DNA of 64,000 nucleotides. It comes from an uncultured virus (IMG/VR IMGVR_UViG_3300048580_000163). Taxonomy: Duplodnaviria > Heunggongvirae > Uroviricota > Caudoviricetes. The notes under the pieces are model-generated. The model was not told the origin of the DNA, searched no databases, and was given only the letters and a program-made list of their open reading frames with translations. The translations under genes were made by a program, and so were the position numbers. The first letter of the stretch is position 1. Every line of letters begins with the position of its first letter. The stretch is taken from positions 1 through 64,000 of the IMG/VR virus record IMGVR_UViG_3300048580_000163; one strand, 5' to 3'. Positions 1,067-49,300 of this stretch are shown piece after piece.

Positions 1067-1333
1067 TTACGCTTGGATAATTTCGACATTAATCTTGTAA
1101 TTTAATTTTTTACACGCTTTTTGCAAAGTTTCAAACGAACAAACTACTTGATTATTTAAAATATGGTTTAAATGTGAGTAGCTGATTTCTGTTTCTCGAG
1201 CAAATTCTCTTTGGCTTATTCCTTCTTTTTTGAAGATTTCTAATAATTGTTTTGTAGTCGGAATTTTTGATAATTCGCCAACCATTTGTAAAGAACAAAT
1301 TAAATCTTGTGAGTAAAAGCTTTTGTAATCCAC
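1067..1333 (-). CDS. XRE-type HTH DNA-binding protein (start possibly 1285)
   Basis: GISQREFARETEISYSHLNHILNN...ETLQKAC pattern. Confidence 0.8.
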   Translation of the reverse strand: MDYKSFYSQDLICSLQMVGELSKIPTTKQLLEIFKKEGISQREFARETEISYSHLNHILNNQVVCSFETLQKACKKLNYKINVEIIQA

Positions 1334-1539
1334 ATTGAAGCATTTTCAATATCTGTCATTGCTAATGATTTCAATCTTCCGTGTTCACTTCCATTTTGTT
1401 CAAGAGCATCAATTCTATTTATGACTTTTGCAAGTTCATATTTCAACTTTAAATGCTCACTACATTCATTGGTCAAGATGTCATCAAAATTAATTCTCAA
1501 TCTTTTTTCTCCTAACGATAATTCTCTTTTTAATTCCAT
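1300..1539 (-). CDS. Putative Acb2/Tad1-like helical-hairpin nucleotide sponge (anti-defence)
   Basis: LGEKRLRINF...RLKSLAMTDIENASMWITKAFT resembles the Acb2-like hairpin; paralog at 17206..17448. Confidence 0.55.
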   Translation of the reverse strand: MELKRELSLGEKRLRINFDDILTNECSEHLKLKYELAKVINRIDALEQNGSEHGRLKSLAMTDIENASMWITKAFTHKI

Positions 1540-1547
1540 AATATTTA

Positions 1548-1578
1548 TAGCATTTTACCTTTCAATCGGGTTTTAATT
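1548..1578 (-). promoter_or_regulatory. Conserved 31-nt leader motif, copy 1
   Basis: AATTAAAACCCGATTGAAAGGTAAAATGCTA, 8 nt before ATG; 27/31 identical to 17457..17487. Confidence 0.7.
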
Positions 1579-1709
1579 TTCATCTTTAAAAAACATTAAT
1601 ACTTTGTGAGTTTTTGCACAATAAACATAAGTTCCAAATCCTCGTGAGCCAAAGCCATAATCAAAATATACTCTTTGTCCTAACATAATTTATATTTAAA
1701 AGCACCATC

Positions 1710-1845
1710 GCACAACAGCGTGTTTATTCAATTGTGGCATAAGGTTTAATTCAATGTTCATTTTGTACTCTTGTTTTCTTTTTGCTTAATCGAAAGGCTA
1801 TTGTGTGTCACACCACGCTGAAATTATAGCGGGCAAACGTTATAT
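1710..1845 (+). repeat. attC-like site 1 (degenerate/chimeric arms)
   Basis: GCACAAC-A ... CAAAC-GTTATAT; inner arms pair only partly. Confidence 0.65.
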
Positions 1846-1851
1846 AATAGC

Positions 1852-2118
1852 TTACTCAACTAACTGCTCAAAGTTATCTTTGAAATATTGTTCAGAAACT
1901 AACCACTGGTCAAAGTGGTTTTTAGGGTTTCTTGAAATCATATCTCCAATTTTAGGACTTCCGTTGTTTTTATCTGCATCAGAAATAGATACATTATAAC
2001 CAAATGGGTATTCAGATATATGAATAAATCCGTGATTATTAAACACATTAATATCTACTTCTGTTACTTCTCTCATTTCTGCAATTTGACTTCTTCTGAA
2101 TTGTTTAAAATTTTTCAT
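1852..2118 (-). CDS. Cassette A cargo: small phage protein (start 2118 or 2154)
   Basis: MKNFKQFRRSQIAEMR...GSPKIGDMISRNPKNHFDQWLV; stop abuts the cassette arm. Confidence 0.75.
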   Translation of the reverse strand: MKNFKQFRRSQIAEMREVTEVDINVFNNHGFIHISEYPFGYNVSISDADKNNGSPKIGDMISRNPKNHFDQWLVSEQYFKDNFEQLVE

Positions 2119-2142
2119 AATATTTGTGAATATAAAGCCATC

Positions 2143-2274
2143 ATATAACAGCATATTACCGATATGGCTTGGCTTTGGTTAATCCGAAATGTGTCGGCTC
2201 ACTTTTTGTTTGTTGTTTATTTGTTTTCGTATGTGTTTAAATACGCCACATCGTTAATATGCGGAACGTTAGCA
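2143..2274 (+). repeat. attC-like site 2
   Basis: ATATAAC-A-GCATATTACCGATATGGC ... GCCACATCGTTAATATGC-GGAAC-GTTAGCA. Confidence 0.85.
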
Positions 2275-17197: not shown

Positions 17198-17205
17198 TAT
17201 TCGTT

Positions 17206-17448
17206 CTATTTAAAAGTTAGAGCCTTGACTACATTCATTTGAGCATTCAATATTTCACCTATTGCTTTATCTATTAATAGTTGTTTTAGAGATGCTTGAT
17301 GTTCGGGCTGTGTATTCTGAAATAATAAATCAGCTAGCTCAGCACAAAGCTCTTTTGCTTTTTGAACTCTTTCGTCTCCAGAAGAATTAAACGTCAATCC
17401 TACCAGCCTTTCTCCGAATGTCATTTCTCCTAAATCGGTATCCTGCAT
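17206..17448 (-). CDS. Putative Acb2/Tad1-like sponge, copy 2
   Basis: TFGERLVGLTFN...AIGEILNAQMNVVKALT. Confidence 0.55.
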   Translation of the reverse strand: MQDTDLGEMTFGERLVGLTFNSSGDERVQKAKELCAELADLLFQNTQPEHQASLKQLLIDKAIGEILNAQMNVVKALTFK

Positions 17449-17456
17449 TTTATTTT

Positions 17457-17487
17457 TAGCAATTATCCTTGCAATCGGGTTTTAATT
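17457..17487 (-). promoter_or_regulatory. Conserved 31-nt leader motif, copy 2
   Basis: AATTAAAACCCGATTGCAAGGATAATTGCTA, 8 nt before ATG. Confidence 0.7.
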
Positions 17488-17492
17488 AAAAT

Positions 17493-17744
17493 TTACTCTA
17501 CAATCACTACATTCTCATACCCCATAACCAAGTACTCGATTCCTTGATAATTGATAGGGTATGTTCTGTGTCTATCAAACCAAATGGTCTCTCCAACATT
17601 AACCTTATCTACATTCTCTCCAATCTCAATTACCTCACCTCTGTGAAACTTAATGTCTTGACCATCTCCTAAATAAAGACCGCTACTTGTCTTCACGTCT
17701 TCCTTAATTTCCTTAACTAAAATGTTACTTAATACTACCTTCAT
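17493..17744 (-). CDS. groES: Co-chaperonin GroES
   Basis: KTSSGLYL mobile loop, GEVIEIG, VNVGE; adjacent to groEL. Confidence 0.9.
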   Translation of the reverse strand: MKVVLSNILVKEIKEDVKTSSGLYLGDGQDIKFHRGEVIEIGENVDKVNVGETIWFDRHRTYPINYQGIEYLVMGYENVVIVE

Positions 17745-19306
17745 TAGTTACTTCTTTTATGTGTTATTGTGGTATTGGTTAATAAAACTGTTGTAGCTAC
17801 ACTTGCAGCATTCTCTAAGGCTAACCTAATAACCTTTGAAGGATCTATAATTCCTTTCTCAAACATATCTACAATTTCGTAATCCTTAACATCATATCCG
17901 TAGTTATCTTTTTGTGCTAATAAGTTTCCTTCAATCGAATCCAACTTAACCCCTGCATTACTTAAAATAGTGCGCATAGGAGCTTGAATTGACTCAAGTA
18001 GACACTTATATCCTTTTGATACAGGAACGAGCTTTAAAGAGGCGTTATATAGCGCTAAACCTCCTCCTACAACTACACCTTCAGATATCGCACTCTTAAC
18101 CGCATTGATTGCGTCATCTACTCTATCAATCTTCTCCTTAATTTCTACTTCAGTTGTTCCTCCGACTTTAATTACAGAAACACCACAAGCTAACTTTGAA
18201 ATACGGTCTCTTAAGTATTCCTTTTCTAAATTGTTGTTTGAGTTCTTGATTACTTTATTCAGCTCTTCAATCTTTGATTGAACCCTATCTGCATTAGGTT
18301 TCTCGTTAAAGAATAATACAGTGTCATCTTTAGTTACAGTCAATCTACTACATTTACCAAGCAATTCATTCATATCATACCCTTCAATGTTTGTAGAGGT
18401 ATCTAAATCAATAATTAAACCACCTGTAGCTAAAGAAATATCTGTCAAGTAATCTCTGCGCTTCTCACCTATACTTGGCGGTATAATTGTAGCCACTTTA
18501 AGACCGTTCTTTTTATTAGCATATAACACCTTCATAACCTCAAACTCCATTTCAGATATGATAAGTAGCTCTTTCTTTGCGTGGTGACAAAACTCTATAA
18601 CAGGTAGTAATTCTGTAATATTCTGAAACCTTCTGTTAGATAGTAAGATAAATGGGTTGTTATTAAACTCAATTGATCTATTCTCTGGTTTATTTACAAA
18701 CCCCTCAAATTCATATCCTCTTGCGATTGGCATACCGTCAATAAAGTCCAAATAGGTTTCTGAACTTTCTGATTGCTCGTAAGATACAACACCATTCTTT
18801 CCAGCAGATATAAAGGCTTTTGCAATTATTTCTCCTAATTCAGAATCATTATTTGCAGATATTCTTGCAACATCAAATAAATAAGAATCATCAACTTCTT
18901 TAGATGTACTCTTGATATAATCAACAACTTCTTTTACAGCAAAGTCAATACCATTCTTTAAATCGATTGCTGATTCACCTTTCTTTAAATACTTCTGGCT
19001 ATTGTCGATAATTGCCTTTGTAAGTACAGCTGTGCCAGTTGTACCGTCACCTGCTTCATTGACTGTTTTTCTACAAGCTTGCTTTACAAATTCACAGCCT
19101 AAACTTTCTGTTGCATCTTCAAGGAAAATACTTTCCGCTACTGATACACCATCCTTTGTTACGATTGGTAGTCCTCCTGGACTCTCAATTAATACTGTTC
19201 TACCTCTATATCCCATAGTTGTAGCAACCGCATCACAAACCGTTGAGATACCTTTAATTAAAGGCTCTTTTGCTTCTTGATTAAATTTAACTTCTTTTAT
19301 AACCAT
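17744..19306 (-). CDS. groEL: Chaperonin GroEL
   Basis: TKDGVSVA, AGDGTT, GVVVGGG, GIIDP. Confidence 0.97.
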   Translation of the reverse strand: MVIKEVKFNQEAKEPLIKGISTVCDAVATTMGYRGRTVLIESPGGLPIVTKDGVSVAESIFLEDATESLGCEFVKQACRKTVNEAGDGTTGTAVLTKAIIDNSQKYLKKGESAIDLKNGIDFAVKEVVDYIKSTSKEVDDSYLFDVARISANNDSELGEIIAKAFISAGKNGVVSYEQSESSETYLDFIDGMPIARGYEFEGFVNKPENRSIEFNNNPFILLSNRRFQNITELLPVIEFCHHAKKELLIISEMEFEVMKVLYANKKNGLKVATIIPPSIGEKRRDYLTDISLATGGLIIDLDTSTNIEGYDMNELLGKCSRLTVTKDDTVLFFNEKPNADRVQSKIEELNKVIKNSNNNLEKEYLRDRISKLACGVSVIKVGGTTEVEIKEKIDRVDDAINAVKSAISEGVVVGGGLALYNASLKLVPVSKGYKCLLESIQAPMRTILSNAGVKLDSIEGNLLAQKDNYGYDVKDYEIVDMFEKGIIDPSKVIRLALENAASVATTVLLTNTTITHKRSN

Positions 19307-19329: not shown

Positions 19330-19361
19330 CAAATATACACTTTTTTTATTTCGTATCTTTG
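19330..19361. promoter_or_regulatory. Back-to-back divergent -7 promoters
   Basis: TATATTTG (minus, 19330-19337) and TATCTTTG (plus, 19354-19361). Confidence 0.7.
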
Positions 19362-29417: not shown

Positions 29418-29445
29418 AAAATAGTTATATTTGCAATAAAAAAAT

Positions 29446-30348
29446 ATGATAGGAATATACAAGATAACTTCTCCGTCTGGGAAAATATATATAGGTCAAA
29501 GTACAAATATAAACAGCAGAATAAGAAAATACAGAAATAACAACTGTAAAAATCAAGTTAGATTGTATAATTCTATCTTAAGTTATGGATTTAAAAATCA
29601 TAGTTTTGATATTATTGAAGAGTGCTTTATAAACGAATTAAACGAAAAGGAAAGGTTTTGGCAAGATCATTATAACTCCACAGGAAATGAAGGATTGAAT
29701 TGTAAACTTACAGAAACAGATTCTCTTAGTGGTAAGCATTCAGAAGAAACAAAGTCAAAAATAGGATTTTCTAATAAAGGTAAAAAAAGAAGCGCAGAGC
29801 AAATAGAGAATATGTCTATTGTAATGAAGGGTAAATTTTCTGGGGAAAAACATCCAATGTATGGTAAAAATCATACTGAAGAAACTAAAGATAAAATATC
29901 TGAATCAAAAAAAGGCAATAAAAATATGCTTGGCAAAAATCATTCAGACGAATCTAAAGAGAAAATATCTAATTCACTTAAAGGATTTAAGCATACAGAA
30001 GAAAGTAAAATAAAAATATCAAAAGGATTAGTAGGTAGAAAAGTATCTATTGAAACTAGAAAGAAAATATCAGAAAGCAATAAAGGAACTGTATTTTCAA
30101 AAGAAAGAAGGGAGAAAATATCCAACGCATTAAAAGGAAGGGTGTTATCAAAAGAGTGCTTAGAAAAAAGAAGCAAAAGTATATCTGGGGAAAATAATTA
30201 CAAATCAAAATTAGTCTTAGATTTAGATAGTGGAATATATTATTATTGCGTAAGAGAAGCTGCTGTGGCTAGAAATATAAATATATCTACACTGAATAAT
30301 TACTTAAGTGGAAATAGACCAAATAAAACAAGTCTAATATATGTTTAA
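29446..30348 (+). CDS. GIY-YIG homing endonuclease with NUMOD3 repeats
   Basis: GIYKITSPSGKIYIGQS; repeated HSEETK.KIS; own TATATTTG at 29426. Confidence 0.92.
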   Translation: MIGIYKITSPSGKIYIGQSTNINSRIRKYRNNNCKNQVRLYNSILSYGFKNHSFDIIEECFINELNEKERFWQDHYNSTGNEGLNCKLTETDSLSGKHSEETKSKIGFSNKGKKRSAEQIENMSIVMKGKFSGEKHPMYGKNHTEETKDKISESKKGNKNMLGKNHSDESKEKISNSLKGFKHTEESKIKISKGLVGRKVSIETRKKISESNKGTVFSKERREKISNALKGRVLSKECLEKRSKSISGENNYKSKLVLDLDSGIYYYCVREAAVARNINISTLNNYLSGNRPNKTSLIYV

Positions 30349-32875: not shown

Positions 32876-32906
32876 AAAAGAGAGGTGTAATGCCTCTCTT
32901 TTTTTT
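32876..32906. terminator. Bidirectional intrinsic terminator
   Basis: AAAAGAGAGGT/GCCTCTCTTTT plus T-run. Confidence 0.8.
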
Positions 32907-33594
32907 ATAGATACTCAAGACCTGTGTTGTTTACCTTTGTTTTCCCATTTAATAGGCATTTTACTTTTGAGTATGTAAATCCAAAATCTTCAGCGGCTTC
33001 TCTTATGCAGTCATATACCTTGCCATTGTTTGAGTTTATTATTTTTCTACTCATAGGATTATCTTCTCCTTTTTTAGATATTGTTTTCTGTATATCTGAC
33101 ATTTTTTTTCTAATCTCATCAGAGTGTTTTTTGCCATAGTAAGGATTTTTTTCTCCTTTAAATTTACCTGTATTTGATAATCTTATTTTTTCTCTTACTT
33201 CTTCTGAAGTTTTTTTCCCTTTATTTGGCGATACTGTACCATACATTGGATTTTTTTCTCCTTTTTTACTTTTACTTAATCTTATTTTAGTTTCTTCTGA
33301 ATGACTAAAACCTGCGCATCCTTCTCCTCCATCAGTTAAATTAGATAATGTTCCGTTTTTATCTATAATCTTGCCATATAGTTTTATAAATTCAATTTCT
33401 TTTTCAACAGCAAAATCCCAAGAAACGTCTTCAAAAAGTATTTCTACTTCATATTCTGTTTTAGACACAATACTATTCCATATTTTATTTCTACAAGATT
33501 TGCTTTTTGCTCTATGAAGCCCTGACCTTGTTCCTATGCCAATATAAAACACTTGATTTGTATCTTTTCGTATATGTCTATAAACGTATGCCAT
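32905..33594 (-). CDS. GIY-YIG-like homing endonuclease with NUMOD3 repeats
   Basis: YVYRH...FYIGIG, NLTDGGEG, HSEETK. Confidence 0.88.
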   Translation of the reverse strand: MAYVYRHIRKDTNQVFYIGIGTRSGLHRAKSKSCRNKIWNSIVSKTEYEVEILFEDVSWDFAVEKEIEFIKLYGKIIDKNGTLSNLTDGGEGCAGFSHSEETKIRLSKSKKGEKNPMYGTVSPNKGKKTSEEVREKIRLSNTGKFKGEKNPYYGKKHSDEIRKKMSDIQKTISKKGEDNPMSRKIINSNNGKVYDCIREAAEDFGFTYSKVKCLLNGKTKVNNTGLEYL

Positions 33595-33698
33595 ACTTAT
33601 TTTTTTTACAAATATATATAATTACTTCTAAACGAAAAGTTAAAATTACAACTTATTTTATTTCGTATCTTTGCAGAATAATTCTAATTTAATTTAAT

Positions 33699-34509: not shown

Positions 34510-34542
34510 ATTTTGTATCTTTGCAAATAAATTTACTTACAA

Positions 34543-35278: not shown

Positions 35279-36139
35279 ATGGCACACCAAATTTTACCAC
35301 CAATAAATTACTATAATAACGAGGATAATTGGGGTAGTTATCAGTATGTATCTCTATCTCAATTGGTTAATAATTTTATGTTAGAACAAATTGGAGACGA
35401 TAGGTTACTATCTAATGTAAAGAGATATAATGTATTACAACACTTTAAGAGAGGTATTCAGGAATTTAATTATGATACATTAAAGGAAGTAAAGGTTGTA
35501 GAGTTAGAGTTAAGTGATTCTTTATTACTTACACTCCCTCACGACTTTGTTTCGTATGTTAGGGTTTCTGTATTAGGAAATGATGGATTATTAAGAACAT
35601 TGTCTAAAGATTCAAGAACATTAATTGGTACAGCTTATTTACAAGACCACGAATTCAATATATTGTTTGATGAAAACGGATATCCTTTAGAGGCTAATGA
35701 AACAGAAACATTTAAGAAATATAACGAAAGAGTAGTTAGTAGAGATAATAGTTATTGTGATCACGACCTAACTGGTCCTAACTATGGGATTAATCCTTCA
35801 CTTAATGCAAATGGATACTTTAGTATAGACAAGAGAAAAGGTGTGATGTCATTCTCTTCTAATATTGGTGGTAGAGTAATTGTATTAGAGTATGTATCTG
35901 ATGGTCTTGAATATAATAACGGAGACGAAGTGATGGTACATAAATTAGCTGAGCAAGCCTTATATAGTTATGTGAAGTATGCTATCTTAAATAATAAGTA
36001 TGGTGTTCAGGAATACATAATTAATAGAGCTAAGAAAGACTACTATAGAGACCTACAAAATGCTAATATCAGAATGTTAGATTTAAGAGGCGGTGAATTA
36101 TTCATATTATTTAATGGTAGAAAGAAATGGCTAAAATAA
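35279..36139 (+). CDS. Tail ring protein (putative)
   Basis: LPHDFVSYVRVS, VLEYVSDG. Confidence 0.6.
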   Translation: MAHQILPPINYYNNEDNWGSYQYVSLSQLVNNFMLEQIGDDRLLSNVKRYNVLQHFKRGIQEFNYDTLKEVKVVELELSDSLLLTLPHDFVSYVRVSVLGNDGLLRTLSKDSRTLIGTAYLQDHEFNILFDENGYPLEANETETFKKYNERVVSRDNSYCDHDLTGPNYGINPSLNANGYFSIDKRKGVMSFSSNIGGRVIVLEYVSDGLEYNNGDEVMVHKLAEQALYSYVKYAILNNKYGVQEYIINRAKKDYYRDLQNANIRMLDLRGGELFILFNGRKKWLK

Positions 36140-39100
36140 AAAATAATTTTCTTAAGGCAACGGTTAATAAAGATTTTGATGAAAGATTGACGCCTAATGG
36201 TCAGATGACTGATGCAGAGAATGTAATGGTTATTTCTGAAGATAATGGAGGTGTTGGTGTGCTAAAGAATGTAAAGGGTAATTTAAAAGTTACGTCTTTA
36301 AATATAGCTAATTCTGAAACAATTGGGAGTATAGAGGATGATGCAAAGAATAGGGCTTTCTATTTTGTAGCATCTCCTTCTTATGACTATGTTATTCAAT
36401 ATAATATAATTGATAATACCACAGAGATAGTACTTCAGTCAACTCACGGAACAGGTGTATTGAATTTTGATAATGAATATCGCATATCGCATTCTGACTT
36501 ATTTGTAAGTGTAGAAGGTTATGATTTATTGTCTTGGACTGATGGTCTAAACCCTCCAAGAATAATTAATATAGAGAGAGCTAAGACTTATGGTATTGAT
36601 GGTTTTACGGAAGATGAGGTATCTGTAATGAAACCTTCTCCGATATACGCTCCTATAATAACTCTTCAATCAACAGTTACCACAGAATTAACTAATTTCT
36701 TAGAAGATAAATTTTTACAATTTGCTTATAGATATAAATATGAAGATGGGTATTATTCAGCAATATCTTCCTGGAGTCAAGTTGCATTTTTACCTTCTTC
36801 ATTTGCATTAGATTATCAAACCTATGAAAACTTAGGTATGGTTAATTTAGCAAATACAGTTAATATAAGCTTTAATTGCGGGAATAGACACGTTATAGGT
36901 ATTGATTTATTATTTAAGGAAAGTGAAAGTTCTACCGTATATATAATAGATAAGTTTATAAAGAGTGAAGAAGGATGGAACATACCTAATCAATCAATTA
37001 CATACAACTTCTATGGAAATAAAATATATGGTGTATTAGAGGAATCTCAATACTTTAGAAATTTTGATAATGTTCCATTAAAAGCAAAAGCACAATCTGC
37101 AATTGGTAATAGATTAGTCTATGGTAATATTACAGAAGGAAGAGACATACCAGAACCTGTGAAATTAAATGTAGATTATTTCTCATCATCATTGGTTATA
37201 GATGAAAAGGAAGGAATTGTATCTGATGTTGTTAAAAGCACGACATACTCAAATGTAGTAGACTTTGAATTTGGAACGCCAGAAGGTGGCTCTGCTCCTG
37301 TAGATGAAATAGATTATGAAACAAATACAATTATTGTAGACAGAACAACTGATTTTCCATCTGCAACAAATATAGATTTAATTTTAAAGGTATCTCCAAA
37401 AGGAGTTTATTTCGGTTCAACATACTCAGTATATGTAAAAGATGGAAGTACTACATTGTTTTCTACAATAGATGTTTCTGGAGAAGAAAATATAACATAT
37501 ACTATGCCTATTTCTTTAGCAACAATATATAACTTAAAGCTTTATGTTGTTTCTGATGATGGTATGATTTATGATTTAGATTTAGAATATAATGCTTATT
37601 ATGTTGTAGGTCCTAAAATATATGTGTCAAAATACAAATACTATGCATACGACCAATTGTGTTATCCTAAAGATGGAGGATACGATTCAACATTAGCGGG
37701 AGATACAATTATAGATTATTCAGCATCATTTGATTTTACTGATTTTGAATTTGTTTCTGGAATACAAATGCGTTTTGATTTTGAATTACAATCTTCTTTG
37801 GTATATGAAGTTCAACCTGCATTTACATATTTCTATAACCTAACAGATTCTTATACCGACTTAAATGATTTTATGACAAACTCTGGATTTGTACTTGATT
37901 TCGAAGGTACATTTTCATCTGCGTTTTACGACCCTTTAAATCCGAATTCTAAGGCAAGTAATGCTGGAGATATAGTTAGTGTTCAGCCATTTGTTACAAG
38001 TGTTTCTGGAGACATATTGACAATAACAATGCCTTATGTAAAGTATTTTGTTACAGAAGAAAGCACTTGGCAAGAAAATAAAGATGATTTTTATTTAATA
38101 AACTCATTAAACTTTGGTCTTTATAGTGAAGATGCTTTTGCAAGTATGCACTCAAATAGAAACTATACTTGTGATGTAATATATTTAGATGACAAAGGAA
38201 GAAAAACCACAGTTATAAGTGGTGGAGAAACATCTGTTTATATTCCTGCATCAGAAAGCGAAAGAGTTAATTCGATAAGAGTTACTACGGCAAGTAATCC
38301 ACCTTCTTGGGCTAAGTATTATAAATTTGCTATAAAGGAAACAAAGAGAGAGTATGACACAATATATGGAAATGTTGTTTATGAAGATGGTATTTATAGA
38401 TGGATACAATTAGTTGGTGAAAACAAAAATAAAATAAAAGAAGGTGATGTACTAGAATTAAAATCAGATTACTCAGGACCTACAGAAATACCAATACAGA
38501 TAAAAGTGTTGGAGGTAGCTACCCAACTAAAAGACTTTTTGCCAGACAACGAAACATCTGGAGGAGATCCTATTCTTGAGTCAAGTGGTCTTTACTTTAA
38601 GATAAAACAAGGAGCTTTCGATATAAATATAGATGGAGACACATTTGTAACGTACGAAGGATTTAGAAGTCAAAGATATATGAGGGGAGATGAAGTTTAT
38701 ACTGCTCCTTTGTTTGGTGAGTTTGATGATTCGACAGTTCCTGTTTTTATTCCTACTCCAGTTAAGAATGGCAGTCAAATAAGATTCTTTGTTAGGATGT
38801 ATATGTTTAAGAATGGAGCTTTCGACCAACAAGTAGAGATAATAAAATTCGCAGAAGATGATTACGATTCTATTAGAGAATGGTGGGAAGCTGAAATAGC
38901 TGATAATCAAGCTTGGTTAAACTTTGCAGAAGATAGACTTCAGGATTTTGGCTGGGATGAAAATAAAAGATTTTATGTTGCGTCTAATAGAGACGGTACA
39001 GCAAGAAGTAATGTTCGTTTAAATGTGGTATTTGATGTTAAATTTTCATCTGGAACTTTAATATTTGAAAACTACAAAGAAGAGCAATTAAATGCACCTT

Positions 39101-40587
39101 ATTTTGAAAGTGTAGAAACATATAATGTCGTTGGTGGAAATCATTTTTCTGGAAATGCATTAGCTCCAAATGTACATATATTAAAGAAAACATTTAACTG
39201 TTTCACTTTTGGAAATGGTTGCGAAAGTAACACTATTAAGGATTCGTTTAATGGAAAAAGATTTTATATAAACTCAAATCCAACATCTATAACGGAAGAC
39301 ATATATAGACAAGTAAATAGATATGCTGATTTAACATATTCTGGTGTTTATCAGGAAAGCACTGGAGTTAATAAACTTAATGAATTCAATTTATCTTTAG
39401 CTAATTATAAGGATGATTTAGTTAAGAAATACGGAAGTATTATAAGACTTGATTCAGACCAAACTGATTTACTTGTAATTCAAGAGGATAAATGGAGTAA
39501 GGTATTGTATGGTAAGGATTTATTATATAACACAGACGCAACAACTAACCTATCAAGAATTGAAGATGTATTAGGTCAACAAGTTTTATATGCTGGAGAA
39601 TACGGAATATCATCACACCCTGAGTCTTATGATGACTACGGAACAAATGCTTTCTGTACTGATGACAAGAGAGGTGTTGTATTAGGTATGAATAACTCTA
39701 ATGGTCTTAGTGAGATAAGTAATTCAGGAATGAGGGATTACTTTAAAACCTTATTTAGAGATAATGAAATTGTAAATGTAATTGGTCAGTATGATGCATT
39801 CTTTGACATATACATTATGAATATCAAGTACAAAATTAAGGGGAAAGATTATACATCTTTACCAGTTAAGTATGATTATGTTACTTGGTCTTACTCTCCA
39901 GAGGTAAATGGATTTTTAGGTAGACAATCGTTTGACCCTGATAGTATGTTGAGAGTGAACAATGAATTCCTATCATTCAAAGGAGCAGATGTTTACAAGC
40001 ACAATGTGGGGTCTTATAATAACTTTTACGGAACATTAGGTCAATCTACATTTGCATTTAACTTTAATGAAGAGCCTTCAACAAGAAAGATATTTAAGAA
40101 TATATCTATAGAAGGTAATTCAGCTTGGAATGTAGAAGTTAGTACAGATATGCAGAATGGATACGCATATTCTTCTGACTTTCTTAATAAAGAAAATGTT
40201 TATTACTCATACATAAGAGGATTAGATTCTTTAGATTTAAAGACATTATCTGTAACAGGATTGGGCGTTATCCAGAATATAATTGGATCTGACTACTTCC
40301 TTAGCGAAGTACCAAGTTCAGTTAGTGTTGGAGATAAGATATATAACACAAATAGAAATTTATTTGGAACAGTTTCTGGAATAGGACCTGACTACATAAG
40401 TATAACACCTGAACCATTTATTACATTCATAGTAAATATAGGAGACTTTATATTATCTTCAAAACCTAGCTCAATTGAAACGTCTGGTATTAGAGGGTAT
40501 TATATGAATACACGATTTAATTTACAAACCACAGGTTATGCTGAGGTGTACGCTATAAATTCAGAAGTCGCAAAATCTTTTGAATAA
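36127..40587 (+). CDS. Tail nozzle/stabilisation protein (P22 gp10-like)
   Basis: VNKDFDERL.P.G...DAENV, WTDGLNPPR, FAYRYKYEDG. Confidence 0.7.
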   Translation: MAKIKNNFLKATVNKDFDERLTPNGQMTDAENVMVISEDNGGVGVLKNVKGNLKVTSLNIANSETIGSIEDDAKNRAFYFVASPSYDYVIQYNIIDNTTEIVLQSTHGTGVLNFDNEYRISHSDLFVSVEGYDLLSWTDGLNPPRIINIERAKTYGIDGFTEDEVSVMKPSPIYAPIITLQSTVTTELTNFLEDKFLQFAYRYKYEDGYYSAISSWSQVAFLPSSFALDYQTYENLGMVNLANTVNISFNCGNRHVIGIDLLFKESESSTVYIIDKFIKSEEGWNIPNQSITYNFYGNKIYGVLEESQYFRNFDNVPLKAKAQSAIGNRLVYGNITEGRDIPEPVKLNVDYFSSSLVIDEKEGIVSDVVKSTTYSNVVDFEFGTPEGGSAPVDEIDYETNTIIVDRTTDFPSATNIDLILKVSPKGVYFGSTYSVYVKDGSTTLFSTIDVSGEENITYTMPISLATIYNLKLYVVSDDGMIYDLDLEYNAYYVVGPKIYVSKYKYYAYDQLCYPKDGGYDSTLAGDTIIDYSASFDFTDFEFVSGIQMRFDFELQSSLVYEVQPAFTYFYNLTDSYTDLNDFMTNSGFVLDFEGTFSSAFYDPLNPNSKASNAGDIVSVQPFVTSVSGDILTITMPYVKYFVTEESTWQENKDDFYLINSLNFGLYSEDAFASMHSNRNYTCDVIYLDDKGRKTTVISGGETSVYIPASESERVNSIRVTTASNPPSWAKYYKFAIKETKREYDTIYGNVVYEDGIYRWIQLVGENKNKIKEGDVLELKSDYSGPTEIPIQIKVLEVATQLKDFLPDNETSGGDPILESSGLYFKIKQGAFDINIDGDTFVTYEGFRSQRYMRGDEVYTAPLFGEFDDSTVPVFIPTPVKNGSQIRFFVRMYMFKNGAFDQQVEIIKFAEDDYDSIREWWEAEIADNQAWLNFAEDRLQDFGWDENKRFYVASNRDGTARSNVRLNVVFDVKFSSGTLIFENYKEEQLNAPYFESVETYNVVGGNHFSGNALAPNVHILKKTFNCFTFGNGCESNTIKDSFNGKRFYINSNPTSITEDIYRQVNRYADLTYSGVYQESTGVNKLNEFNLSLANYKDDLVKKYGSIIRLDSDQTDLLVIQEDKWSKVLYGKDLLYNTDATTNLSRIEDVLGQQVLYAGEYGISSHPESYDDYGTNAFCTDDKRGVVLGMNNSNGLSEISNSGMRDYFKTLFRDNEIVNVIGQYDAFFDIYIMNIKYKIKGKDYTSLPVKYDYVTWSYSPEVNGFLGRQSFDPDSMLRVNNEFLSFKGADVYKHNVGSYNNFYGTLGQSTFAFNFNEEPSTRKIFKNISIEGNSAWNVEVSTDMQNGYAYSSDFLNKENVYYSYIRGLDSLDLKTLSVTGLGVIQNIIGSDYFLSEVPSSVSVGDKIYNTNRNLFGTVSGIGPDYISITPEPFITFIVNIGDFILSSKPSSIETSGIRGYYMNTRFNLQTTGYAEVYAINSEVAKSFE

Positions 40588-40605
40588 ATACTTTATCTTT
40601 GCAAT

Positions 40606-41013
40606 ATGGATATAAGAATTGCTGAACATACTGATTATAAAATGCTAACAGAGTGGTGGGGTTTTTGGAGATTTCCAGCCCCATCAATCAAGGCATTACC
40701 GCAATATGATTTAGGTAAATTCAATGGAGTTATAGCTTCAGAAGGAGGTAAAGATTTAGCTTGTGGTTTTATGTACACCACTAATTCCAATATGGTGTGG
40801 ATAGAGTTTATGGTTACAAATCCTAAGACCACATCAGAAGAAAGAAATAAGGCTATTTTAAGCGTGTTAGAGGAGTTATCTTTCTCAGCTAAAGAGTTAG
40901 GTTATTCAATTGTGTTTTCGTCTATTAAGAACGAGAATTTAATTAATAAATATGTAGAGAACGGGTTCTCTATAGGAACAAGAGGAACAACTGAATTAAT
41001 AAAAATACTATAA
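40606..41013 (+). CDS. GNAT-fold virion assembly protein
   Basis: AKELGYSIVFS...YVENGF; sits between nozzle and ejection genes as in podoviruses. Confidence 0.6.
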   Translation: MDIRIAEHTDYKMLTEWWGFWRFPAPSIKALPQYDLGKFNGVIASEGGKDLACGFMYTTNSNMVWIEFMVTNPKTTSEERNKAILSVLEELSFSAKELGYSIVFSSIKNENLINKYVENGFSIGTRGTTELIKIL

Positions 41014-43309: not shown

Positions 43310-46300
43310 ATGGACGAATTAAAAAAATTATACGAAGTATTAGTAAGAGAGGGGAAATACACAAAATCCTTTGATGAATTTCAAAATAAATGGTCTAATG
43401 ATGAGCCTTATAAAGACAAGGTTTATGAGGTTGTAAAAAGAGATGGTCTTTACTCTAAAGATAAAGACTCGTTCTTACAGAAATACTCAAGCGTAACGTC
43501 AAAAAAAAAAGTAGAATCGACTGGTACTTCAGAAGAAGCTCCTTCGGTATCTCCTGTACAACAAACGAAAGCAAAGTCTTTTTCGGTTGGAGGAAAACCT
43601 CTTCAAACTGGGGCTTCGGCATCTTCTGTTGGGAAAAATAAAGCCTTATTTGGCGCACCTGTTCAGTCTTTTACAGAGCAAAAGTCAAAAGAATTTAAAG
43701 AAGCGAAGAAGAAAGAAATTACTGTAATTGATAAAAAACCTGTAGTAGATATAACTTCTCAGTTCAATGTAAAACCAAATACATTTACGGAAGCTGTATC
43801 TGCTCAAGTTGATAATGATTTTAAAGTTGCTCCAGTATCCCCATTAAGCGTAGTGGTGTCTGAAAAACAAAAGCAAAGAAAAGCGTCTCAACAAGAAGGT
43901 CTTGATAATTACTTAACCAAAGAAAGCATAGATTTCGAAGATGCTTTAGCTGGTAAAGGATTTCTTAATAATGTAGAAAATTTTGCAAGAGGCTCTTGGA
44001 ATACAGCCTTAGCCTTAGCTTCTAATTTGCCATTTGGTATTGGGGAGAAAGCAAGTGAAGTAATAGGAAGCACTGGAGTTGTAGCTGATAAAACATCTGT
44101 AGATAAATACTTTAATAAAGCAAAGCAAGAGTTTGAAAAAGAAGGTAAAAGCGTAACTCCTGAGAGATTAAAAGAAAGAGCAAAAGAGATAAAATTAAAG
44201 GAAGCTAAGGATAATTATATTGAGAATCAAGACGCTGAATTCTTAAACGAAATAAAAAATGAAGAATATGTAGACCCTAAATCTGGTGAAGTTATTAAAA
44301 TTCAAGATGCATTAAGAATAAATGATTTTGAAAAATACAATACACTAAATAAAGAGTCTGTAAAATACTCAAACCTATTAAAATTAAATAAAGAGAAGGT
44401 AGATGGTTTTTATAATGACTTAAAGCAAACTAAGAATGTATTAAACCACCAGATAATATTTGGTAACTTTGATTACGCTACAGATATATACAATGGTCTT
44501 TTAAATAAAGAAGATAAGAATCAAGATGATTTAGATTTTATATCTTACTACGAAACTAATAAAGATAAAGCTGCATCTAGCCCTATAAATCCTAATTTAA
44601 AGCAAATAGTTAGTAAGTTAGAGGAAGAAATTAAATCTAAAGCAGACGACTTTAATTCTGCATTAGATACTCAACTTAACTACATAGAGAAATTTGATAA
44701 ATCATTCACTGGAAAAGAAGATGCTTATGACGACTTCGATAACTCAAGAAGAAGTTACGATGGTGTTTTTGGAGATAAGGTTTATTTATCGGCAGCAGAG
44801 ACAGTGAATGGAACTATTAAGACAATTCAAACATTAGCTGAATTATCAGACAAACTTAAAGGTAAAATAGGTCTTCCTTTACAAGGAGCTGACTCATACC
44901 TATTCAATAAAGTATTTAAAGATTATAATTACTACGACTTTTCTAAAGAGTTAGAGAAACAAAAAGAACTTGTAAGAGAAGATGTAAAGGAAGTAACTAA
45001 CGCAAGTAGTTTACTAAACTATGTATCAGATGTAACAGCTACTCAAACAGGTCAAATGGCTTTACCTATGCTTGCTGGATATGGAAAAGTAGCTATGCCT
45101 TTATTAAGACAATCTGCCGTTTATTTTTCATCAGGTTTTGGTAGAGGTGTTGGTGAATCTGAAGAATTTGAAGAGAGGTTTAAAAGAGGTTTAGTTGAGC
45201 CTGGAGAGATAGGTAAAGTACATACGTTTGCTGAGAAGTTGATTCACGGAGGTATTACTGGAGGAGCTGATATATTAGGTAATTTGCCAACAGCCTTAAG
45301 GTTATCCAAATCATTTAACTCGCTACTTTCAAAACCAGAGACTGCTAATATATTTTGGAAAAGCTGGACCAAAAAAGGATTAGATGAGGCAAAAGAACTT
45401 GGTACTGATTTATTAAAAGAGAACACGGAAGAGTCTTTAGCTGAAATATTCCAGGACTTATCAAGAGTATTTGTGCTTAATGAAGATGGCGTGAATATAG
45501 GTCAATCTATTGATGATGTAATAAAAGATACTACAACATTTACATTAATATCTAAAATATTCCCACTTATGGGTAGAGGTGTTATAAATAGAATTGCATC
45601 TACTTCTGACAAGAATAAGATTTCTGAACTTGAAAAAGAGTTGTATTATTGGAAAGGAAAACTTGGTGAAAATGTTAGTGAAGAAACTAAAGCTATATAT
45701 TCCGATAGAATTTCTAAGATACAATCAAATATAGATAAGACCAATTTATCTATAATAGATAAGGTTAAGAAAGATGCTGGAGGAGTAAGTGCTATTGAAT
45801 CTTTAAATACAGAAATAGATAATATGCTTCAAGAGGCTAATAAGATAAATGAGAACAAAGAATTATCTAAAGAAGAAAAGAAGGTATTATTAGATGCTCA
45901 AAAAGAATTATACACTTCGTTGATTTCTAACAGAGATGCGTTAATAGATGGAAGTAAAACATCATTTGATTTATTACCTGAAGAAGTTCAGACTAAATTC
46001 AAAGATGAAGCAAAAAGTATATTAAAACAAGCATTGATTGATAAAGGAGAAGAAGAAACTTTAATAAATATAAATGCAGAATCAATAAACAACAAAGCAA
46101 AAGAATTATATAACCAAAAAATAGAAGAAGATGCAAAAAGAAAGCAAACTGATGGGCAAATCACCAGTGAAGAAAAGCCTACAACCACAGCCGAAGAACA
46201 AACCGTTAGCACAACACAGCAAGAAGGTAATGTCGGGTTGCAAGAAAAAATAAATTCTGTAGAGTTAGATTTTAATAATAATAACTTAGATAAAATAGAA

Positions 46301-49300
46301 ATCTCTCTATCTAGACAAGGTTTTATTGGTGATTTTTTAAATGACTATGAATTCTTAGCTGAAGGAAGTGAGCATTCTGTTTATATAAGTAAAGATGGAA
46401 AAACTGTTATAAAGATAGGAGAGCCTTACGGAAGTAATGAGGGGTTTATGCCAAGAGTAAAGGATGCAATTTCAATAAGTAATTTAATTGGAGATGGCAG
46501 TCTTGAGGTTATAGGTTATTATGAGCAAAATGGAGTTAAAAACCCTATATATAAACAAAATTATTTAAAAGGAGAGACCGCTTCTCAATCAGAGGTTTCT
46601 TCTTATTTAGAGTCTAAAGGTTTTTTAAATATAGGAAATGATAACTTTGTTGTAAATGTAGATGGTAAGTTTTTAAGAATATCAGATACGTCTGACAATT
46701 TTATAAAAGATGATAACGGAAATATTTTTGCTATAGATGCAGGCATAGTTGAAATATCTGAAAATGATTTAACAGACAGTCAAAAACAAGAAATTAACAA
46801 AAAAAACATTAAAACACAAGAAGAAATAGTAACGCCTAAAGATGAAGATTTAGAAATACAAGAAGATGAGGTAATAACTATTCCAGAAGACGAGATAGAG
46901 GCTTTAAGACAAGAAGTTACTGAACAAAGAATAGAGGGTAGTTTATCTGATAATATCGGTCAAAAAGGATATATTGGATCAAAAGAAGGTATGATTAAGA
47001 TAGATGATACCAATCGAAACACTATTGTATTTGAAACAAATAATGAAATAATAGAGTTAGGAAAGGTTAATGAAGATTCTAACAGACCGATAGCGTCTTT
47101 TGGTATTTCTAAATTCCCTCAAGAAGGAGTAAGAACGGAAGCTAAGCAAGGTAAATCAATACCAGTAGTAAAAATAGATGGTAAAGAATATGAATTTGTA
47201 AGTAGAGCGAGAGACAAAAAAGGAAAAGCTGTTGTTAAATTAAAAGAAAAAGAAACTGGTCTTGTAAGAAGAATATCTGGAGAAAAAGCAGAGAGAATTT
47301 TAAAAGATGTTTCATTGCAATCTGACAAAAAAGAGACAAAACTTAATTTACAAGTGGCTGGTAAAGAAGTTGTTGGAAAAACAGATAAAGAAATAAAAGC
47401 AGAAGAGAAGAAAAGAAATTCTGAAGAAAGAAGAAAGAGAAGAGAAGAGTTTCAATCTAAAACACTTAACGAACTTAAAGAAGAAGAAAAGAAATCAGAA
47501 GAATTATTAGCTAAAATAGAAGAAGAAATATTAGATGAATTAGTTAAGAAATCTAAGAACAAAGATTTAGTTAAGGTAGGTCAAAGAGTATTTCAAGTAA
47601 CCAAAAAACAAGATGGAACATTTGCCGTATCACAAGTAAATCCTGAAGGTAAACTTGTTGGTATTAGAGATGAGGCTACAAGAAATAAAGCTATTGGCGT
47701 ATTTAAAGCTAAAAAAACAAAGGCAGATAAAAAAGATTTACAAGAGGCTCAAAACTTAATAGAAAGCTTTAAGAAAGATGAAAGAGATAGAATTGAGAAA
47801 CTATTAGATAAAGCTATAAGTGCTTTAGATTTAAAAGGTAAGGGTGCTTTTGATGCTTCAATAGCCTTACCAGCTTACGCTGCTAAAAAGTTCTTACAAG
47901 GAATTAAGGTTTCTTATAAAGCAGGTAAAACTCTTGCGGAAGCTATAAATGATGGTATAAAACTAGTTAGAGATATGGGCTATATATCTGTTTCTGATTT
48001 TGATTTAAAGGAATACGCATTAAAACAATTATCAACTAAAAAAGAAGACAAAGATGCCATTCAAGAGCAAACAACAAGTGAAATTCCTGTACAGCCAGAA
48101 ACCGCAGTTAGCGAAGAAGTGGAGCAAGGAGAACCCGAAGCAAAACCTGAAGAGTCTACCGAGCAAGGTGAAGAAAAAGTAAAACCACTAAAAGAAGTTA
48201 AGAGTCAACTACAAGAGCTATTTAGTGCAGCTAAAGAAGCTATATCTATAACGAAAAATAGAGCTAAAGAAATTGATAAGTTAAAGAAAGACTTAAATCA
48301 ATTTGTAAAGTCTAATTTAGTTGGTCTTGATGCTTCTGATATTATGAAGTCTGCTTATCAGAAAATAACGTCATTAGTTCAAAATACTACTGATGCAAAC
48401 TTTGAGGGGCAAGCAGAAAAGATTAATGATATTATAGATGACTTATATCTTAGAAGAGAGTTAAGAGACGAGGCTATACTTGACAAGAAAATCAAGGAAG
48501 CTTCTAAAGATACTTTTTACAAGGATAAAACTTCTGGAAAAGTTACCAAAACTAAAGTAACTGATGAATTTAAGAAGAAGATTGAAGAGGCTAAGAAGAA
48601 GTTCTCTAAAATAAACAACCCTACAATAGCTGATAAGACTGTATTTTATTTGGAGGTTAATAAACTATTAAAAGATGGTATTAAGGCAAGAAAAGCTATA
48701 AATGAAGCAAGAGATTCTAAATCAAGAGAGAATGCAAATAGATTAGCTATAATTTCTTTAAATAAGAATAAGAGTATTGAGCCTAAGAAAACAGTTAAAC
48801 TAGAGTCAACTACAATAGATAAGATTTTCGATAAATTCTCAGGTGGAGTTATCTTTAATGGTAAGATATATTTGAATACAAAATCAGGTAAATCTAACTT
48901 TATCACAGATACTGAAGGACTAAGTAGGGTGTCTTTTAATCCAATATCTACATCAAATGTAGCTAGTAGTGCGGAAACTAATAGAAAGGGCTTTAAAACG
49001 GCTTTTAATGACATTAGAAGAAGATATAGTACCGCAACATTCAGTGCTGATAAATTTTTTGAGCCTTTATTTTCAGTTGAAGGAGCTAAAGAATTCCTTG
49101 ATAAAAATTGGATAAATAGACTGAAGGTTTACTCTGAGAAGCTTGGTAGAAAAGTAAGTGAATTTAGAGATGTTCGTGATAACTTTATTAAGGATGTTAT
49201 TGGTAAAGATAATTTCTTAAACAATAATAGAATCTTAAAGTCTAATACATACGATGTAATTAAGACTGCTGTTGCTATATTTAAGGGTGGTGATAAGAGT

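Follow-up and report, generated by a model that had tools for sequence, protein, structure and literature searches.

A near-invariant leader before small accessory genes of Bacteroidota phages, a candidate translation-start signal and joint for gene exchange

Short conserved sequences directly in front of start codons have been described before, and here we compare them with a leader of about 36 nucleotides (nt) from an uncultured tailed phage (Caudoviricetes; IMG/VR record IMGVR_UViG_3300048580_000163). The window, that is, the whole stretch of DNA analyzed, comprises bases 1-64000 of the 68141-base virus record, and in it the leader precedes two genes for small Acb2-like proteins. The closest described analogue is the Start-Associated Sequence (SAS) of Cluster K mycobacteriophages. 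According to excerpts of the original report, the SAS measures 13 bp, contains a Shine-Dalgarno (SD) core, lies 3-7 bp from the start codon and occurs many times per genome; it is described for one phage cluster, its function is given as unknown and a role in translation initiation is proposed (Pope et al., 2011; PMC3203893). As far as these excerpts go, both elements are short, asymmetric and conserved, lie in one orientation directly upstream of mostly ATG starts, precede non-structural genes of different families, sometimes include the upstream stop codon within the motif, and are absent or nearly absent from host genomes. With its fixed register ahead of unrelated genes, the leader falls into the same functional class as the SAS. 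It differs from the excerpted description in being about three times longer, in having no usable SD sequence and no sequence similarity to the SAS, and in occurring in only 1-4 copies per genome while crossing unrelated phages of 68-308 kb.

Three further systems invite comparison. PeSL cassettes of T4-type phages, in the excerpted accounts, are likewise conserved regulatory sequences beside small, variable genes of mostly unknown function and act as joints in modular shuffling; they consist of a promoter and a stem-loop (terminator), whereas the leader contains neither a stem-loop nor a canonical promoter box (PMC2839356, PMC4122927). DUF805b RNA (Rfam RF02914) is also a small conserved element located shortly before start codons of Bacteroidota and mobile elements, but the leader does not match it, is unrelated in sequence to its consensus and forms no supported hairpin. 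Finally, attC sites are foldable imperfect inverted repeats of 55-140 nt, each assigned to the 3' end of its cassette, and Qi and co-workers are said to have found, in 2023, clusters of attC sites without an integrase (CALINs) in phages (PMC9892861). The likeness lies in arrays of small, promoterless-looking genes with a repeated site between them and in the swapping of single genes; the leader, in contrast, has 36 nt, is unfolded and is locked to the downstream start codon. Full-text literature searches for the leader core or motif found no published description, and the leader has no catalogued counterpart.

Anatomy, register and distribution of the leader

The leader was noticed as a 31-nt repeat at positions 1548-1578 and 17457-17487, both read on the minus strand. 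The initial annotation had reported 27 of 31 identical positions and a distance of 8 nt to the ATG in both cases (open reading frames (ORFs) 1300-1539 and 17206-17448), and both statements were borne out. When up to three mismatches were allowed, the degenerate 31-mer was found at these two places only within the window, and none of 100 dinucleotide shuffles contained two or more matches. The further statement that the repeat occurs nowhere else is correct for the window and does not hold for the genome, where a third copy lies outside the window at 66587-66629 on the minus strand, 8-9 nt before the ATG of a non-Acb2 gene. A leader profile compared with the genome recovered exactly three copies (E 2e-13 to 4e-10; next match E 4.3), and no antisense partner on the opposite strand was matched by the profile below E 5. 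Copies 1 and 2 become similar abruptly at their 5' edges, remain so up to the ATG and have unrelated flanks. The conserved block proved to be longer than 31 nt and covers about -36 to -1, with the A of the ATG taken as +1. Copy 1 thus delimited occupies 1540-1575 (minus strand; nhmmer E 4.1e-10) in front of Acb2-like gene 1, and copy 2 occupies 17449-17484 (minus strand; E 4.6e-11) in front of Acb2-like gene 2. At -23, copy 1 has A where the family consensus has C; L027 and L036 keep the C in their orthologous copies.

Two scans of viral contigs provided the material for a family profile. The first, with a 15-base core against 2.9 million viral contigs, returned 63 loci, with roughly as many expected by chance on a rough estimate. 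The full extension and an ATG were present in 30 of the 63, all of them low-GC, and in 23 of these 30 the ATG followed exactly 34 nt after the start of the motif (range 28-36 nt). A second scan gave 94 loci. Pooling yielded 93 distinct copies in the standard register from low-GC viral contigs; here and below, leader counts refer to distinct sequences and not to independent events. All 93 and all three genome copies lie in the sense orientation and in a fixed register to the start codon. In order, the leader core consists of CCGATTGCAAGG, wTAAg, TGCTA and, after a spacer, the ATG, and an A-rich stretch lies upstream of it. TGCT followed by 9 nt and ATG is found in 93 of the 93 copies used for the profile. 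Among the positions that were free in at least one scan pattern, -33 is A, -30 is C and -16 is A throughout (93/93 each), and A is found at -15 in 92, at -6 in 91 and at -3 in 88 copies. Free variation is limited to -32, -31, -18, -17, -14 and -8, which in no frame checked by eye coincide with third codon positions, and about 25 bases are fixed, including an invariant U at -13 and an invariant G at -12. Six variable positions, with the rest fixed in 93 copies of unrelated genomes, indicate site-specific purifying selection.

Five complete carrier records of 78-308 kb contain 1-2 clustered leader copies each. Four of the five have no homologue of the 2906-amino acid (aa) protein encoded by the phage at 43310-52030, which indicates that the carriers do not form a single lineage. 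In cellular genomes, a 19-base pattern was applied, using one genome per species for 185,579 bacterial and archaeal species. Of the six matches, four were true copies, all within runs of small same-strand ORFs; they belong to a Flavobacteriaceae genome, to Flavobacterium caseinilyticum, to a Sediminibacterium metagenome-assembled genome and to a small low-GC contig, and one of the four precedes a homologue of protein 2, the product of Acb2-like gene 2. A blastn comparison of the 39-nt leader with 50,697 GenBank phage records, representing cultured phages, gave chance matches only (E = 7). The leader is an element common to many unrelated Bacteroidota phages, nearly invariant and located in front of small accessory genes.

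Upstream, 65 of 83 copies are preceded on the same strand by an ORF of 40 aa or more whose stop falls 31-56 nt ahead of the ATG; for 26 of these the distance is 32-33 nt, and the stop abuts the core. This is the commonest geometry in the family and is also seen for copy 1, where the TAA stop of a 37-codon upstream ORF (1573-1686, minus strand) forms positions -36 to -34 of the leader. Copy 2 lies downstream of groEL (17744-19306; Pfam Cpn60_TCP1) and groES (17493-17744; Pfam Cpn10), which are encoded on the same minus strand in the same apparent operon, and of the 44 nt that separate the groES stop from the start codon of Acb2-like gene 2 almost all are leader. In tandem arrays, 3-4 leader copies follow one another with 4-22 nt from stop to core; in tight arrays, the leader alone separates the genes, with 32-50 nt between a stop and the next ATG.

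Genes behind the leader and their exchange

The two genes of the window had been assigned as Acb2-like by eye, and the assignment stands, by the Pfam model for gene 1 and by profile comparison for gene 2. Gene 1 (1300-1539, minus strand) encodes a 79-aa protein that matches PF24729 (Acb2_Tad1_hairpin) with 36 bits against a cut-off of 27 (E 7.9e-9), and the same family is precomputed for nine of ten database relatives of protein 1. The four best PDB matches of the protein 1 family profile were Vs.4 (7uq2), p26 (8ixz and 8h2j) and 'Acb2 homolog 43' (9ptq), with weak but specific E-values of 0.0068 for T4 Vs.4, 0.019 for the PaMx33-type p26 and 0.046 for the Acb2 homolog. Gene 2 (17206-17448, minus strand) encodes 80 aa and is a distant homologue of gene 1. 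Protein 2 stays below the PF24729 cut-off (12.4 bits against 27), PF24729 is precomputed in none of its relatives listed, and its family profile found no PDB sequence. It is nonetheless homologous to protein 1, because BLASTP aligns the two with 27% identity over 73 residues (E 2e-5) and hhalign aligns their families at 97.4% (E 1.2e-11, 72 columns). The Acb2 fold is a helical hairpin that assembles into a hexamer with nucleotide pockets. The AlphaFold2 model of protein 2 (pLDDT 82.3) consists of a short helix and two long antiparallel helices, that is, a predicted helical hairpin; a Foldseek search with this model returned no match at E <= 0.001, and VIA-align gave generic helical matches only (Z <= 6.9), so that a specific match to Acb2 was not obtained in these two comparisons. 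Directly downstream of gene 1 lies a gene for an XRE-type helix-turn-helix (HTH) protein (1067-1285, minus strand; HTH_3, PF01381, 36.5 bits), an arrangement that recalls pairs of an anti-defence gene and an Aca-type repressor.

The proteins encoded behind the leader amount to 99 distinct sequences in 45 clusters. Acb2-like proteins account for 19 of the 99 and form a single cluster, the largest; 12 are of the protein 2 type and seven of the protein 1 type, with one truncated duplicate among the 19. The other 44 clusters are not Acb2-like. They include Tad2-like proteins (PF11195), HU (PF00216), histone-like Hc1 (PF07432) and relatives of crAss001_48; most leader-driven proteins have no known family, and PHROGs gave no function for most of them. 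The gene behind copy 3 (genome 66311-66589, minus strand) encodes 92 aa without Acb2 similarity. The combination of leader and Acb2-like gene was found in six of nine distinct multi-copy arrays inspected, and the array in L090 holds Tad2-like and Acb2-like genes together. The enrichment of Acb2-like (sponge) genes behind the leader is real.

An element specific to Acb2-like genes, as the initial annotation had envisaged, is not what these data describe. Of the best 80 viral loci with a relative of protein 2, two carry the leader and 78 lack it; of the best 80 with a relative of protein 1, four carry it, which are four of the 40 low-GC ones, and 76 lack it. Since the motif is mostly absent from homologues and present before unrelated genes, the Acb2-specific reading fails on the very grounds that the initial annotation had named. 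Many leader-less relatives of protein 2 have a canonical TAtaTTTG box followed by an A/T-rich leader. Homologues of protein 2 at L310, L311, L314, L320, L321, L332, L355 and L378 carry a different, A/T-only leader with TTAAA-type repeats just before the ATG, usually behind a TAtaTTTG box.

The order of genes around the leader is shuffled. In L063, a 167-kb record, the leader connects the upstream flank of copy 3 (93% identity) with the gene of copy 1 (94% identity) and is the only part common to both alignments. The gene whose product starts with MNSLDFCYW occurs in four arrays with three different upstream and four different downstream leader-driven neighbours. Like the PeSLs of T4-type phages, the leader thus behaves as a joint for the exchange of single genes. 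As every copy is nearly identical to the others, the copies could provide the homology at which single genes are swapped between arrays and phages. The window also contains a paralogue of the copy 3 gene (1852-2154, minus strand; 81% DNA identity). Its probable start is at 2118 (MKNFKQF...) and not at 2154, and upstream of this start only the last ~11 nt of the leader are found, as if recombination had cut the leader. A further recurrent feature is an AAC/GTT junction 10-16 nt after cassette genes, at 1836-1841 (minus strand), at ~1185-1200 in L003 and at ~985-1035 in the oriented L063 record; in L063 it is preceded by an imperfect hairpin of ~40 nt, which directly follows the Acb2-like gene and is separate from the leader.

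Mode of action of the leader

A structured RNA was among the possibilities raised by the initial annotation. Rfam gave no match at E <= 10 on any of seven copies (three in L001-L003, four in L004); a 16-bit PreQ1 match (E 9.7), which overlaps the A-rich tail of one L004 copy, was read as chance. Four leaders folded with minimum free energies of -1.1 to -6.1 kcal/mol into three different structures, and their fold z-scores were 0.03, -1.23, -1.62 and -0.16. A minimal H-type pseudoknot can be drawn from the pairs CC/GG and GCA/UGC, and its loops take up the variable positions. In two dedicated scans, the stem positions were left free. GCA/TGC was kept in 29 of 30 distinct sequences, the exception being G-U-compatible, and CC/GG was kept in 36 of 37, the exception breaking the pair. 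Compensatory changes were found neither among these 30 and 37 sequences nor between -31 and -18. The third pair of stem 1 forms in 21 of 93 copies only, and the C-to-A change of copy 1 breaks the drawn helix. These results indicate that the constraint acts on sequence and not on pairing. Elsewhere in the same phage, a sub-threshold match to DUF805b was noted at 343-375 of L003 (minus strand; genome ~65455-65487) with 20.8 bits against a gathering threshold of 35.6 (E 0.016-0.032). A 98-aa ORF begins ~21 nt downstream of the match, and relatives of this ORF in other phages have the leader instead; the match would represent a second kind of small start-proximal element in this phage.

A canonical Bacteroidota promoter is not part of the leader. 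The initial annotation had remarked that TAnnTTTG is missing from both window copies; direct reading of the sequence confirms this, and the -7 box, taken as TAHHTTTG and followed after 4-5 nt by the transcription start, is not found in the 36-nt block of any of the three genome copies. The leader positions that align with the -7 element read C, C, n, G, A, T, T and G. In the excerpted account for Flavobacterium johnsoniae, T-12, A-11, T-8, T-7, T-6 and G-5 of this element are nearly invariant, most mRNAs are leadered and leaderless ones are rare (Baez, 2019; PMC6847099). A canonical box does lie at 19330-19337 (minus strand), where it starts 31 nt before the groEL ATG, and is likely to be the promoter of the groEL-groES-acb2-like unit. 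RNA-library contigs at 17199-19295 (X16) and 17203-17864 (X9) run through leader 2 and bridge groEL, groES, leader 2 and Acb2-like gene 2; coming from one sample, and being contigs and not reads, they are a weak hint in favour of transcript read-through. At the L005 copy, a canonical -7 box has its G at -56, so that a transcript from this box would carry the entire leader as 5' untranslated region. The canonical promoters of the phage have the extended form TAtnTTTGCAa (19330-19337, 29420-29440, 33670-33690, 34515-34535, 40590-40605 and others). The one before 40606-41013 ends ~6 nt from the ATG, which suggests a nearly leaderless mRNA.

We tentatively favour, with somewhat less than even confidence and from sequence comparison, the reading that the leader is a portable, sequence-specific translation-start leader that acts at the mRNA level and doubles as a recombination joint for small gene cassettes, often of counter-defence function. 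The leader would be transcribed within a polycistronic mRNA and would act as a dedicated SD-independent translation-initiation region, for which the RNA segments CCGAUUGCAAGG and UGCUA may matter. The invariant, single-stranded leader would be read by a component common to the hosts, either the ribosome or a conserved RNA-binding factor. As a rule the leader takes up all of the space from one same-strand gene to the next and heads small accessory genes, many of whose products may be abundant binders such as Acb2-like and Tad2-like sponges, HU and Hc1. A single-base register to the start codon is what a translation signal needs; a promoter needs such a register only if the mRNA is leaderless. 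According to excerpts of the F. johnsoniae work, Bacteroidota ribosomes do not use SD pairing, and the features that promote initiation are little structure and A at -3, -6, -12 and -13 (PMC6847099). Of these, the leader shows the lack of structure and the A at -3 and -6. Like the ordinary initiation regions described there, it has no functional SD, but those regions, in the excerpts, have A at -12 and -13 and no fixed sequence, whereas the leader has G and U at these positions and its fixed bases. Ordinary genes of this phage rely on stop-start coupling over a few nt, with A-rich sequence at -12 to -14, and in view of this different geometry the three leader genes form a distinct class. What stands of the original interpretation is a cis-acting element tied to the gene start; an RNA dedicated to Acb2-like genes, for autoregulation or for sensing of immune nucleotides, does not. 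A bolder version of the favoured reading, which we regard as unlikely on present sequence data, holds that the leader is an SD-independent signal for ribosome recruitment or expression, set aside by unrelated Bacteroidota phages for counter-defence proteins and further high-copy binders, and that it is read by a component conserved across Flavobacteriales and Chitinophagales.

Several observations weigh against a translation-start function. The invariant U at -13 and G at -12 are contrary to the host preference for A there. Being related, the copies do not count as independent, and several of the invariant positions had been prescribed in the search patterns. Pairing with 16S rRNA was considered as a basis for recognition and rejected: in RNAduplex predictions with three leaders and a Flavobacteriaceae 16S rRNA, the best site was internal (532-559), and shuffled leaders attained its energies of -18.6, -21.9 and -23.0 kcal/mol in 6, 1 and 5 of 40 cases, respectively, so that pairing was not significantly better than for shuffled sequence. 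Of 16 copies without a close upstream ORF, 14 have no canonical -7 box (TAHHTTTG) within 200 nt and need another driver, which favours a promoter inside the element. The core sequence ATTGCAA, moreover, resembles the TTTGCAA that ends the -7 boxes of the phage itself, and its G lies at -24, as in the groEL promoter. For these reasons a non-canonical promoter is kept as the main rival, although we consider it rather less likely than the translation-start reading and on the whole doubtful. The leader would then be a compact promoter with a short leader in which CCGATTGCAA is a variant -7-type element, read by the host RNA polymerase with another sigma factor or with a phage-modified one; the transcript would begin near -19 or with the start codon itself, and each small gene would be a self-contained expression unit. 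In keeping with this, the element spans the usual distance between -7 box and ATG in this phage (box G at -13 to -26), its core is preceded by A-rich sequence, and T4-type PeSLs, in the excerpted report, place tandem strong promoters before small early genes (PMC2839356). On the other hand, T-12, A-11 and T-8 of the -7 element are C, C and A in the leader, no -33 element is present, and the 17 nt past the putative start are as invariant as the core. The exact register would be unneeded unless the mRNA were leaderless, which on the excerpted F. johnsoniae account few mRNAs are, leader 2 lies inside a unit that has its own canonical promoter, and no phage polymerase co-occurs with an element that is present in 1-4 copies per genome across unrelated phages. 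A promoter for a virion RNA polymerase was examined and rejected: the 2906-aa protein has a homologue in one of the five carrier genomes only, and its sole DFDxD-type motif is at residue 2886. For comparison, the excerpted phi14:2 study gives no common motif for early transcripts.

Three further explanations rank lower. Quite improbable is a module for recombination or mobility only, be it a joint, the end of a mobile element or an integron-like site, with any effect on expression being incidental. The shuffled gene order and the hybrid junction in L063 would suit such a module, as would the all-or-none nature of the copies (the profile search found no decayed ones in the genome) and the hairpins with an AAC/GTT junction that adjoin some cassettes. 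It does not account for a conserved block that is bounded exactly by the upstream stop and the ATG, for variation confined to six positions or for tight arrays with nothing but the leader between genes; there is no inverted repeat, DNA folds of 14 copies with 160 nt upstream were weak and inconsistent (-5.3 to -13.6 kcal/mol) and held no attC-like or other long hairpin common to them, and no recombinase is linked to the leader in the window. Less probable still is that the leader serves a dedicated repressor as its operator, on DNA or RNA. The repressor would be either the XRE-type HTH protein, in an Aca-like arrangement, or a nucleic-acid binder that is itself leader-driven; the HTH_3 gene does stand directly after gene 1, and sequence invariance without covariation fits recognition by a protein, but the motif is asymmetric without a dyad, no HTH gene adjoins copies 2 and 3 or the tandem arrays, and a regulator common to the carrier phages was not found, no search aimed at one having been made. 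The least probable is the idea first put forward, a small riboswitch-like RNA for ligand sensing or autoregulation, with cyclic nucleotides or the Acb2-like protein itself as effector. The share of Acb2-like genes behind the leader, the joint presence of Tad2-like and Acb2-like genes in L090 and the drawable pseudoknot with its variable positions in loops speak for it; against it stand the 44 other protein clusters, the leader-less loci of most homologues, the failure to match Rfam or to fold better than shuffled sequence, the letters kept without compensation at free stem positions and the helix broken in copy 1 and short of its third stem 1 pair in most of the 93 copies.

Further features of the phage and implications

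Some features of the record bear on its assembly and affiliation. A 127-nt exact repeat (1223-1349 equals genome 68015-68141) links the end of the record to an internal site. It includes the final 50 nt of Acb2-like gene 1, reaches into the beginning of the following gene and resembles an overlap of assembly k-mers or an alternative junction. Bases 1-1222 may stem from a strain variant. RNA-library contigs cover 1301-2600 and hardly 651-1300, a segment that may be absent from the sampled strain. The phage is in part crAss-related: a 1486-aa protein encoded at 36127-40587 has the C-terminal domain of the crAss muzzle protein (PF25729), and the neighbouring 2906-aa ORF at 43310-52030 has no Pfam match. 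A copy of the latter gene with 100% identity is present in a 99.6-kb viral record (G004, with the leader loci L008/L009) together with a second ORF of 3269 aa that is 30-36% identical to it, and two phages may have been assembled into G004 as a chimera or a concatenate. Genes of the GIY-YIG/NUMOD3 homing-endonuclease type lie within the structural gene block at 29446-30348 and 32905-33594.

If the bolder version holds, the leader would constitute a new mode of bacterial translation initiation. It is a concrete candidate for a signal that gives strong, site-specific initiation in Bacteroidota beyond a few adenines and low structure. On the bolder version it would also be a sequence beacon, and anti-defence candidates would then include the ~40 protein families without known function that follow it. 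The leader marks arrays that contain known sponge families and is usable for finding new counter-defence genes. Single genes are seen to be shuffled between phages at a regulatory sequence without a visible recombinase, and as a portable module of 36 nt the leader may serve as an expression part in Flavobacterium genetics.

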